Positions 24,757 through 25,287 are shown, numbered from the stretch's first letter. The stretch: 25,287 bases of DNA from Ignisphaera sp. (GCA_038889075.1 JAWAHS010000011.1:1-25287), one strand, 5' to 3'. Notes: generated by a model from the letters alone, not told the origin. Program-made: numbers and translations.

Positions 24757-24843
24757 GCCGGGGTGGCCGAGTGGTTAAGGCGGTGGGCTCGAGACCCACT
24801 GGGGTACATCCCCACGCGGGTTCGAATCCCGCCCCCGGCGCCA
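24757..24843 (+). tRNA. tRNA-Ser(CGA), intronless, CCA encoded
   Basis: GCCGGGG...GTGGG-CT-CGA-GA-CCCAC, long variable arm, GGTTCGAATCC, CCCCGGC-G-CCA. Confidence 0.97.
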
Positions 24844-24858
24844 AGCAAACACCGTAAA

Positions 24859-24919
24859 GGTCCGATGCAAATCGATGGGCGGTCTGAAAAGTGATGAACC
24901 ATTGTAGAGTTAAAGGGCC
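24859..24919 (+). ncRNA. Candidate box C/D 2'-O-methylation guide sRNA
   Basis: CTGA (24884-24887)-AAA-GTGATGA (24891-24897), flanked by two segments antisense to conserved 16S rRNA sequences; terminal stem GGTCC/GGGCC; outer C and D boxes degenerate. Confidence 0.62.
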
Positions 24920-24968
24920 GCGGAAACACAATAAAACTTTTAATCACAGGCTACAGCAGGTTACATAG

Positions 24969-25042
24969 GGGCCCGTAGCTCAGTCTGGCAGAGCGCCCGG
25001 CTGATAACCGGGAGGTCGGGGGTTCAAATCCCCCCGGGCCCA
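24969..25042 (+). tRNA. tRNA-Ile(GAT), CCA not encoded
   Basis: GGGCCCG...CCCGG-CT-GAT-AA-CCGGG...GGTTCAAATCC...CGGGCCC-A. Confidence 0.97.
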
Positions 25043-25159
25043 CTCTACTAGAATACCGGAATCGACCTGCACATCAATTCTGATATGGAATACATTTCCT
25101 TTAAAACCTTATAACCTCTATAAAAATAGTTTGGAGATGGGTTCGAGCTTTTAGAAAAA

Positions 25160-25245
<86 letters not shown>

Positions 25246-25287
25246 CTATCTTTCCGGCTCTTCATAGATCTAGATAGAGTTCATAGT

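Follow-up and report, generated by a model that had tools for sequence, protein, structure and literature searches.

Directly behind the tRNA-Ser(CGA) gene of an Ignisphaera species lies what is, on the evidence of sequence comparison, a genuine archaeal box C/D sRNA gene, aimed at the equivalent of C1402 in the decoding site of 16S rRNA. The stretch of DNA that was analysed, here called the window, comprises 25,287 nucleotides (GCA_038889075.1 JAWAHS010000011.1:1-25287); coordinates are counted from its first letter, and the features described from the tRNA-Ser to the tRNA-Ile gene, both genes included, lie on its plus strand. Taken as a whole, the data make it likely that we are dealing with a functional C1402 guide, belonging to a family that extends over the whole order, which in the Ignisphaera lineage is excised at a relaxed bulge-helix-bulge (hBH) and circularised. 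Neither the guide RNA nor its linkage to a tRNA is new, and the family is in print. What is new is the architecture, which combines an inverted quality of the boxes with a covarying helix-bulge-helix and may be a sign of excision by an endonuclease and circularisation.

The gene stands in a cluster of tRNA genes that ends the window. Upstream, tRNA-Ser(CGA), with an encoded CCA, occupies 24757-24843 (ARAGORN; Rfam tRNA score 62.5 bits) and is the probable 5' cistron of a precursor. Downstream come tRNA-Ile(GAT) at 24969-25043 (ARAGORN), a neighbour of the sRNA that is conserved in close kin, and tRNA-Leu(CAA), the third of the cluster, at 25161-25246. The first-pass annotation had let the sRNA begin at 24859, 15 nt after the CCA, and had seen no promoter behind the tRNA. 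Both observations stand: tRNA-Ser does end at 24843, and merely 8 nt (24844-24851) separate it from H1, the outermost helix of the structure discussed below, leaving no room for a promoter. The tRNA and the sRNA, on the same strand, a few nucleotides apart and with no promoter between them, have the layout of a dicistron. Further on, 24 nt ahead of tRNA-Ile, AAAACTTTTAATC (24933-24945) associates a T-run with a TATA-like box and is conserved in close kin; it is possibly a terminator together with the promoter of tRNA-Ile. The RNA contigs give no cover over 24933-24945, which by itself is uninformative.

From 5' to 3', the sRNA contains a degenerate remnant of box C, CCGATGC (24862-24868; canonical RTGATGA), the D' guide (24872-24883), a perfect box D', CTGA (24884-24887), the 3-nt loop AAA of the C'/D' k-loop (24888-24890), a perfect box C', GTGATGA (24891-24897), the D guide (24898-24909) and a degenerate remnant of box D, TTAA (24910-24913; canonical CTGA), placed exactly 12 nt after box C'. 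The quality of the boxes is therefore inverted, perfect inside and degenerate outside, as had been noticed from the start. The inner motif, CTGA-AAA-GTGATGA, has the form of a C'/D' k-loop (UGAUGA and CUGA with a linker of 3-9 nt). As for the outer boxes, CCGATGC is aligned with the RTGATGT or GGGATGT of relatives, and the pair CCGATGC and TTAA with their canonical RTGATG and CTGA; being homologous to canonical boxes, they must be seen as decayed, not absent. The D guide measures exactly 12 nt between its boxes, and the spacer from the C remnant to box D', 15 nt, is atypical.

The gene of the organism's own 16S rRNA lies outside the window in the same genome (G000:C19:13466-14971), and both guides were paired with it. 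Nucleotides 24873-24883 of the D' guide make 11 contiguous pairs with 16S 1359-1369, ten of them Watson-Crick and one G-U. According to the N+5 rule, the methylated base pairs with the fifth guide base upstream of box D or D'. Here this base is G24879, and it stands opposite C1363, within ACCGCCCGTC; since ACCGCCCGTC corresponds to E. coli 1398-1407, as measured from the 1492 primer site in an E. coli copy, C1363 is the equivalent of C1402, and the register that had been proposed for the D' guide is borne out. Under the same rule, C1363 would be 2'-O-methylated through the D' guide. The second guide had been described as antisense to a conserved part of 16S rRNA, and it does pair with CUACAAUGG in the organism's own molecule: 24899-24907 form nine Watson-Crick pairs with 1195-1203, CTACAATGG, with A1197 at the N+5 position. 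In E. coli numbering this target starts at about 1234-1236, both E. coli copies examined having indels. The pairing of both guides thus conforms to what defines archaeal box C/D guides (about 12 nt, at least nine pairs, N+5), and no better target than these 16S sites was found in the organism's own 23S rRNA and 37 tRNAs.

How much weight these matches can bear was estimated with random 12-mers. Against the rRNAs, a run of 11 pairs with at most one G-U was obtained in 6/400 cases and a run of nine pairs in 98/400; an exact run of at least nine occurred in 123 of 2000 12-mers. The D' match is therefore unusual, whereas chance suffices for the D match taken by itself. It may be added that part of one guide can pair with part of the other (24873-24878, CGATGG, with 24899-24904, CCATTG). 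This pairing appears both in the single-sequence fold and in the alignment fold; as it shows no covariation, it probably just follows from the sequences of the two 16S targets.

The D'-C' motif is likewise weak by itself: one match is found where 0.25 would be expected, and when the window is shuffled 100 times, at least one turns up in 21. If we add that the outer boxes are degenerate, and that Rfam returns no family at its gathering score (the match to sR14 is weak, 12.6 bits, E 0.88), we might fear that the locus is a decaying, non-functional sRNA remnant, or a chance motif caught between tRNA genes. Considered alone, the locus is indeed suggestive only; it is conservation that carries the case. 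A degenerate pattern search of species genomes yielded 105 stretches, of which 22 are bacterial chance matches and 83 come from Desulfurococcales, Ignisphaera and allied archaea (Ignisphaera, Desulfurococcaceae, Thermogladius, Staphylothermus, Desulfurococcus, Pyrodictiaceae and allied MAGs). The family alignment, A2, comprises 76 distinct archaeal cores, bacterial rows having been left out. In these 76 copies neither the guide cores (GAYGGGCG for the D' guide) nor the inner boxes vary, CCAYTGTAG is conserved in the D guide, and variation is seen in the linkers; fully canonical boxes are present in 25/76. A sequence-only model built from these copies finds one copy per genome in 102 of the 151 sampled genomes of the order, which also establishes homology to accepted box C/D members. 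Restricted to genomes of good quality, the count is 86/124, and by family the matches are complete in two (18/18 each) and absent in one (0/8). The range of the family includes Ignisphaera, Desulfurococcaceae, Thermogladius, a probable Ignicoccus and Sulfolobaceae-like genomes. In relatives the guide GACGGGCGG forms ten uninterrupted Watson-Crick pairs with 16S rRNA, in both genomes checked. With a single copy per genome across the order, invariant guides, covarying flanks and a discrete RNA contig of 100% identity in an RNA library, whose flanks are uncovered, a remnant or a chance motif is very improbable indeed, and we rejected both on conservation.

Part of this had been anticipated in relatives. 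Cm1402 was detected in N. equitans, no guide being assigned to it in the account of Seistrup et al. (2017, PMC5389701); the same text states that in I. hospitalis 'Iho sR11 could direct Cm1402', at a site that is less than 50% methylated. A box C/D sRNA lying directly behind tRNA-Ser in I. hospitalis is mentioned by Breuer (2021, PMC7994747), citing Tripp (2017). The reading of a C1402 guide behind tRNA-Ser, made in the first-pass annotation, was right, but it has been published before, for an Ignicoccus relative. Iho sR11 shares with the present RNA the proposed target Cm1402, and we infer that it belongs to the same family and may be the sRNA behind tRNA-Ser. The copy found in a probable Ignicoccus genome (G047; model match E 4.9e-11) is close in several respects: it has the same D' guide core and a CCATTGTAG guide, and it lies directly behind a tRNA-Ser gene, just as the published Iho sRNA does. 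It differs in having a canonical CTGA as box D, no H1-bulge-H2 flank, and tRNA-Ser(GGA) instead of tRNA-Ser(CGA). Outside the archaea, the U43-type snoRNAs (snR70 in yeast, SNORD43 in human) and the bacterial enzymes RsmI/RsmH act on the same conserved 2'-O-methylated cytosine of the P-site, the bacterial route being protein-only. A table in PMC11542601 equates E. coli Cm1402 with yeast Cm1639, human Cm1703 and Arabidopsis 18S Cm1645 (AtU43).

The gene context was counted at 95 distinct loci fitting a strict pattern. A tRNA-Ser gene lies within 60 nt upstream in 5/95, with anticodon CGA in the window and in three close kin and GCT in locus L011; G047, with GGA, shows the same adjacency. Downstream, tRNA-Ile(GAT) lies within 160 nt in 24/95 and is a neighbour throughout the genus. 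The link to tRNA-Ser(CGA) holds for the window and its three close kin only, a different isoacceptor lying upstream in two other lineages. The counts indicate a patchy link with tRNA-Ser, involving three isoacceptors, and a broader one with tRNA-Ile. These three isoacceptors (CGA, GCT and GGA) could go back to a single ancient linkage whose anticodon has since turned over, or to several captures. In the part that was compared, the 3' end of tRNA-Ser is the same in the window and in G047 (locus L203), and almost the same in L011. Another box C/D sRNA, whose guide contains GCAGCGGATAA ahead of CTGA, occurs some 10-70 nt behind the first at loci of Desulfurococcaceae type (L088, L110, L132, L086, L097, L098 and L129), and tRNA-Ile(GAT) lies 128-157 nt downstream at the six loci having one in range (L086, L088, L110, L129, L132 and L130). 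In several families this second sRNA separates the C1402 sRNA from tRNA-Ile(GAT); Ignisphaera is devoid of it.

The flanks of the RNA are organised as a helix-bulge-helix, which was analysed at 16 loci of Ignisphaeraceae type picked by eye, L015 being left out as devoid of such a flank. A GC stem, H2, pairs GGTCC (24859-24863) with GGGCC (24915-24919) and closes the sRNA at 16/16 chosen loci, as it does in the fold. Outside it, H1 pairs CCGT (24852-24855) with GCGG (24920-24923). It comprises four base pairs at all 16 chosen loci, where it is made of seven different sequences, with changes on both sides at each of the four pairs. Between H1 and H2 the 5' strand bulges by 3 nt at 16/16 loci (AAA, AGA, ATA or AAT; here AAA, 24856-24858), and on the 3' side H1 is followed, again at 16/16, by a triplet beginning with A (here AAA, 24924-24926). 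A fifth H1 pair is impossible at 14 of 15 loci, L023 standing outside this count. That all 128 of 128 paired cells are indeed paired follows from the choice of parsing and is not a test; with a shuffled 5' flank the same parse was obtained in 133 of 3200 trials. The minimum free energy fold contains both H1 and H2 (z = -2.44), and RNAalifold recovers H1 and mis-registers three rows when given a MAFFT alignment of 13 trimmed loci, the 18 available having been reduced by two near-duplicates and by three of outlying length. The same layout with an unrelated H1 (TGCT/AGCA) is found at L088, L110 and L132. The locus left out, L015, belongs to a single-contig genome of the same genus (G015); in place of an H1-bulge flank it has only a 4-bp stem, ATGC/GCAT, and its box D is a canonical CTGA. 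A search for similar structures at other sRNAs gave 18 parses among the 40 D'-C' motifs of the genome, and the other 17 are AT-rich and look like chance.

Six kin in which no tRNA lies upstream have a TATA-like box 20-27 nt before H1. By the usual spacing between an archaeal TATA box and the start of transcription, the transcript would begin at H1 in these six.

This arrangement recalls the bulge-helix-bulge (BHB) recognised by the tRNA splicing endonuclease. In tRNA introns the BHB has a handedness, with the bulge of the 3' strand outside and that of the 5' strand inside; read from the outside, the window has a triplet on the 3' strand, four base pairs, a 3-nt bulge on the 5' strand and the inner helix. 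The central helix has exactly the four pairs of a BHB, and the inner 3-nt bulge is there at 16/16 loci; the outer triplet is present, without a conserved closing helix. A canonical BHB was therefore discarded: judged by eye, the outer helix is reduced to 0-2 bp in kin and is absent from the window. At best, the flank would have a relaxed, hBH, geometry, in which 24856-24858 is the proposed site of 5' cleavage and 24924-24926 the proposed second bulge, an open one, at the site of 3' cleavage.

The RNA evidence comes from four runs labelled as RNA (X17 to X20), compared with the window as assembled contigs, which carry no strand information. A metatranscriptome contig of X17, 98 nt long with a depth of 41.9, covers 24856-24923 (68 nt) with 0 differences and continues with 30 further letters. 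Runs X18, X19 and X20 have no cover over 24854-24923, which is uninformative either way. No run covers 24844-24855 or 24924-24965; this tells us nothing about the spacers and, as no contig bridges 24844-24855, nothing in either sense about a joint precursor. A scan of metagenome contigs with a 46-nt stretch of the window gave one DNA contig of 22 kb and no RNA form. X17 also holds one RNA contig that goes back 38, from 25044 to 25007, in the 3' part of tRNA-Ile; it may come from a relative or from a repeat.

The 30 additional letters deserve attention. The description of Logan contigs in PMC12424806 gives circular ones a 30-mer end repeat and has non-circular isolated contigs below 150 bp discarded. 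Since the end repeat is a 30-mer, 68 and 30 nt make up the form that a 68-nt circle would take in Logan. The length of this one contig, in one run, fits such a circle; a linear 68-nt RNA to which other letters became attached is a possible alternative. The aligned piece ends at 24923 and not at 24926, which fits a circle only if the shared AAA was trimmed. Canonical BHB cuts fall after the second base of the bulge. If each triplet were cut behind its second base, 24858-24925 would be released, also 68 nt, and of identical sequence to 24856-24923, as both triplets are AAA. Whether the RNA is a circle or linear, its limits, 24856 and 24923, coincide with elements of the structure rather than with the end of the tRNA. 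The first-pass annotation had implied release by tRNA 3' processing; here the account must be amended, because the only RNA evidence at hand places the 5' limit inside the conserved bulge, so that tRNA 3' processing alone is probably not the mechanism of release.

The enzymes that another mechanism would demand are encoded in the genome: the catalytic domain of EndA (PF01974) scores 100.3 bits and RtcB 568 bits, and no Pab1020-type Rnl ligase was found in this genome, which is 99.6% complete. Rnl circularises C/D sRNAs in Thermococcus and is reported missing from several crenarchaea (PMC9014305), and Breuer et al. (PMC7994747) describe the ends of C/D sRNAs as usually without BHB motifs and the route to circularisation as unclear. 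We propose the following sequence of events. Transcription would proceed from behind tRNA-Ser or, in kin without that tRNA, from a promoter setting the start at H1. Cleavage by the tRNA splicing endonuclease in both A triplets would then free the RNA, for RtcB to ligate into a 68-nt circle. The terminal C/D kink-turn of the Ignisphaera lineage has decayed, and the GC stem H2 closes the RNA in its stead. Within a particle made of L7Ae, Nop5 and fibrillarin, the D' guide would pair with 16S rRNA and C1363, the C1402 equivalent, would be 2'-O-methylated; the second guide, which pairs with 16S 1195-1203 and stands ahead of a degenerate box D, may serve chiefly to keep hold of the rRNA or to chaperone it. 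The sRNA of Ignisphaera and some Desulfurococcaceae would then be an 'intron without a host gene', its hBH-ended stem replacing the kink-turn; EndA would free it from the trailer of tRNA-Ser or from a leader of 4 nt, and RtcB would close it as a 68-nt circle. This specific scenario is quite possible, and we advance it tentatively.

The simpler scenario is the one suggested originally: a dicistron of tRNA-Ser and sRNA from which RNase Z and trimming by exonucleases produce a linear sRNA, H1 and H2 acting as a terminal clamp for a weak kink-turn at high temperature, with neither splicing endonuclease nor circle. It accounts naturally for the adjacency of the two genes and the lack of room for a promoter, and precedents exist in N. 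equitans (sRNA8/tRNA-Val), Pyrobaculum (sR44/tRNA-Met), I. hospitalis (the sRNA behind tRNA-Ser) and the tRNA-snoRNA dicistrons of plants. In the known dicistrons too, only a few nucleotides part the sRNA from the tRNA that precedes it on the same strand, and the sRNA is devoid of a promoter of its own; the 5' end of those sRNAs has been attributed to RNase Z, whereas the limit of the present RNA lies 13 nt further in, at the bulge. Trimming to 3-4 nt outside H2 would also leave an RNA spanning about 24856-24923, and the missing outer helix of the hBH speaks for this scenario as well. Yet H1 is kept at exactly four base pairs by compensatory changes although its 5' strand lies outside the RNA contig, which implies that it acts in the precursor. 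Moreover, H1 is retained in most kin although no tRNA precedes it there, the TATA-like box of six of them sets the start of the transcript at H1, and the contig of 68 and 30 nt fits a circular Logan contig. We consider release by RNase Z and trimming rather unlikely, though far from negligible.

Excision by the splicing endonuclease, followed by circularisation, has counterparts of its own. The box C/D RNA in the intron of archaeal pre-tRNA-Trp is excised at a BHB by the splicing endonuclease and circularised (PMC3326292, PMC9014305). That RNA has a host tRNA, whereas the present one has none, the part of the 'exons' being played by a spacer on one side and, on the other, by the trailer of a tRNA or a leader of 4 nt; and the outer BHB helix of pre-tRNA-Trp is missing here. 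If the circle is real, the RNA would resemble the small circular guides of other hyperthermophiles, the C/D sRNAs of Pyrococcus and Thermococcus (Rnl, Pab1020-type), with the difference that the genome of the window has no detectable Rnl and that its RNA has a defined helix-bulge-helix. The permuted SRP RNA of Thermoproteus is comparable as a transcript, neither tRNA nor rRNA, that has BHB ends and is circularised by the tRNA splicing machinery; it belongs to another class of RNA, its BHB is described as functional, and the process restores a permuted gene.

The degenerate outer boxes raise the further question of what the D guide does. With CCGATGC and TTAA the only oppositions possible in a terminal C/D kink-turn are G-A, A-A, U-U and G-U, and the C strand has no 3-nt bulge if H2 forms. 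A textbook kink-turn being thus unavailable, assembly of a symmetric particle is uncertain. A simple box scan of the same genome gave no fewer than 43 further sRNA candidates whose outer boxes are near-canonical, a figure from which the frequency of degenerate boxes cannot be derived since the scan demanded good ones; the candidates are spread across contigs C1-C16, one of them (C11:44986-45032) just outside the window. Across alignment A2 the state of the outer boxes is coupled to the D guide. Copies with a CCACTG guide have canonical C and D boxes in 25/25 cases; among those with CCATTG, both outer boxes are degenerate in 42 of 49 and box D departs from CTGA in 47 of 49. The guide CCATTG matches the 16S target CTACAATGG perfectly, whereas CCACTG leaves a C-A mismatch in both CCACTG genomes checked, and the rRNA operons of two genomes contain no perfect target for it. 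Around nine loci with further matches to the CCACTG 10-mer, no tRNA was present.

From the coupling of guide and boxes, together with the C-A mismatch, it follows that the D guide may serve binding rather than methylation. One could go further and see in the RNA a one-sided guide, of which only the C'/D' half methylates C1402, the D guide providing extra pairing or a chaperone function; this would fit either model of processing. That 47 of the 49 perfectly matching copies have a non-CTGA box D, that all 25 CCACTG copies with their mismatch have canonical C and D boxes, and that chaperone roles have been proposed for double guides, as stated in PMC4644070, would all be understood. Conversely, L185, from a Sulfolobaceae-like genome, combines CCATTG with a canonical CTGA. 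It also counts against a one-sided guide that efficient 2'-O-methylation in archaea is said to need both C/D and C'/D' motifs. On balance we hold the one-sided guide for possible, if on the doubtful side. The Sulfolobaceae-like copies at large (L185-L189 and L199; family f13, with genomes of 1.9-2.9 Mb) mostly have near-canonical outer boxes and a degenerate box D' (AAGA, GTGA, TAGA or TGGA); they are the mirror image of the copy in the window, canonical outer boxes with a degenerate D' being the usual pattern.

The consequences extend beyond a single locus. C1402 is listed in PMC11542601 among the very few ribose methylations common to bacteria and eukaryotes, and a dedicated C1402 guide conserved across a crenarchaeal order makes the state of this site in archaea directly testable. 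The association of a covarying helix-bulge-helix, no Rnl and a contig of the predicted size provides a concrete substrate on which a route using EndA and RtcB can be tested. If true, this would define a way to circular C/D sRNAs that is independent of Rnl, where covalent closure replaces the C/D kink-turn. The locus also illustrates how the terminal boxes of an sRNA can decay with its guides still working, a matter of some concern for gene finders that demand canonical outer boxes.
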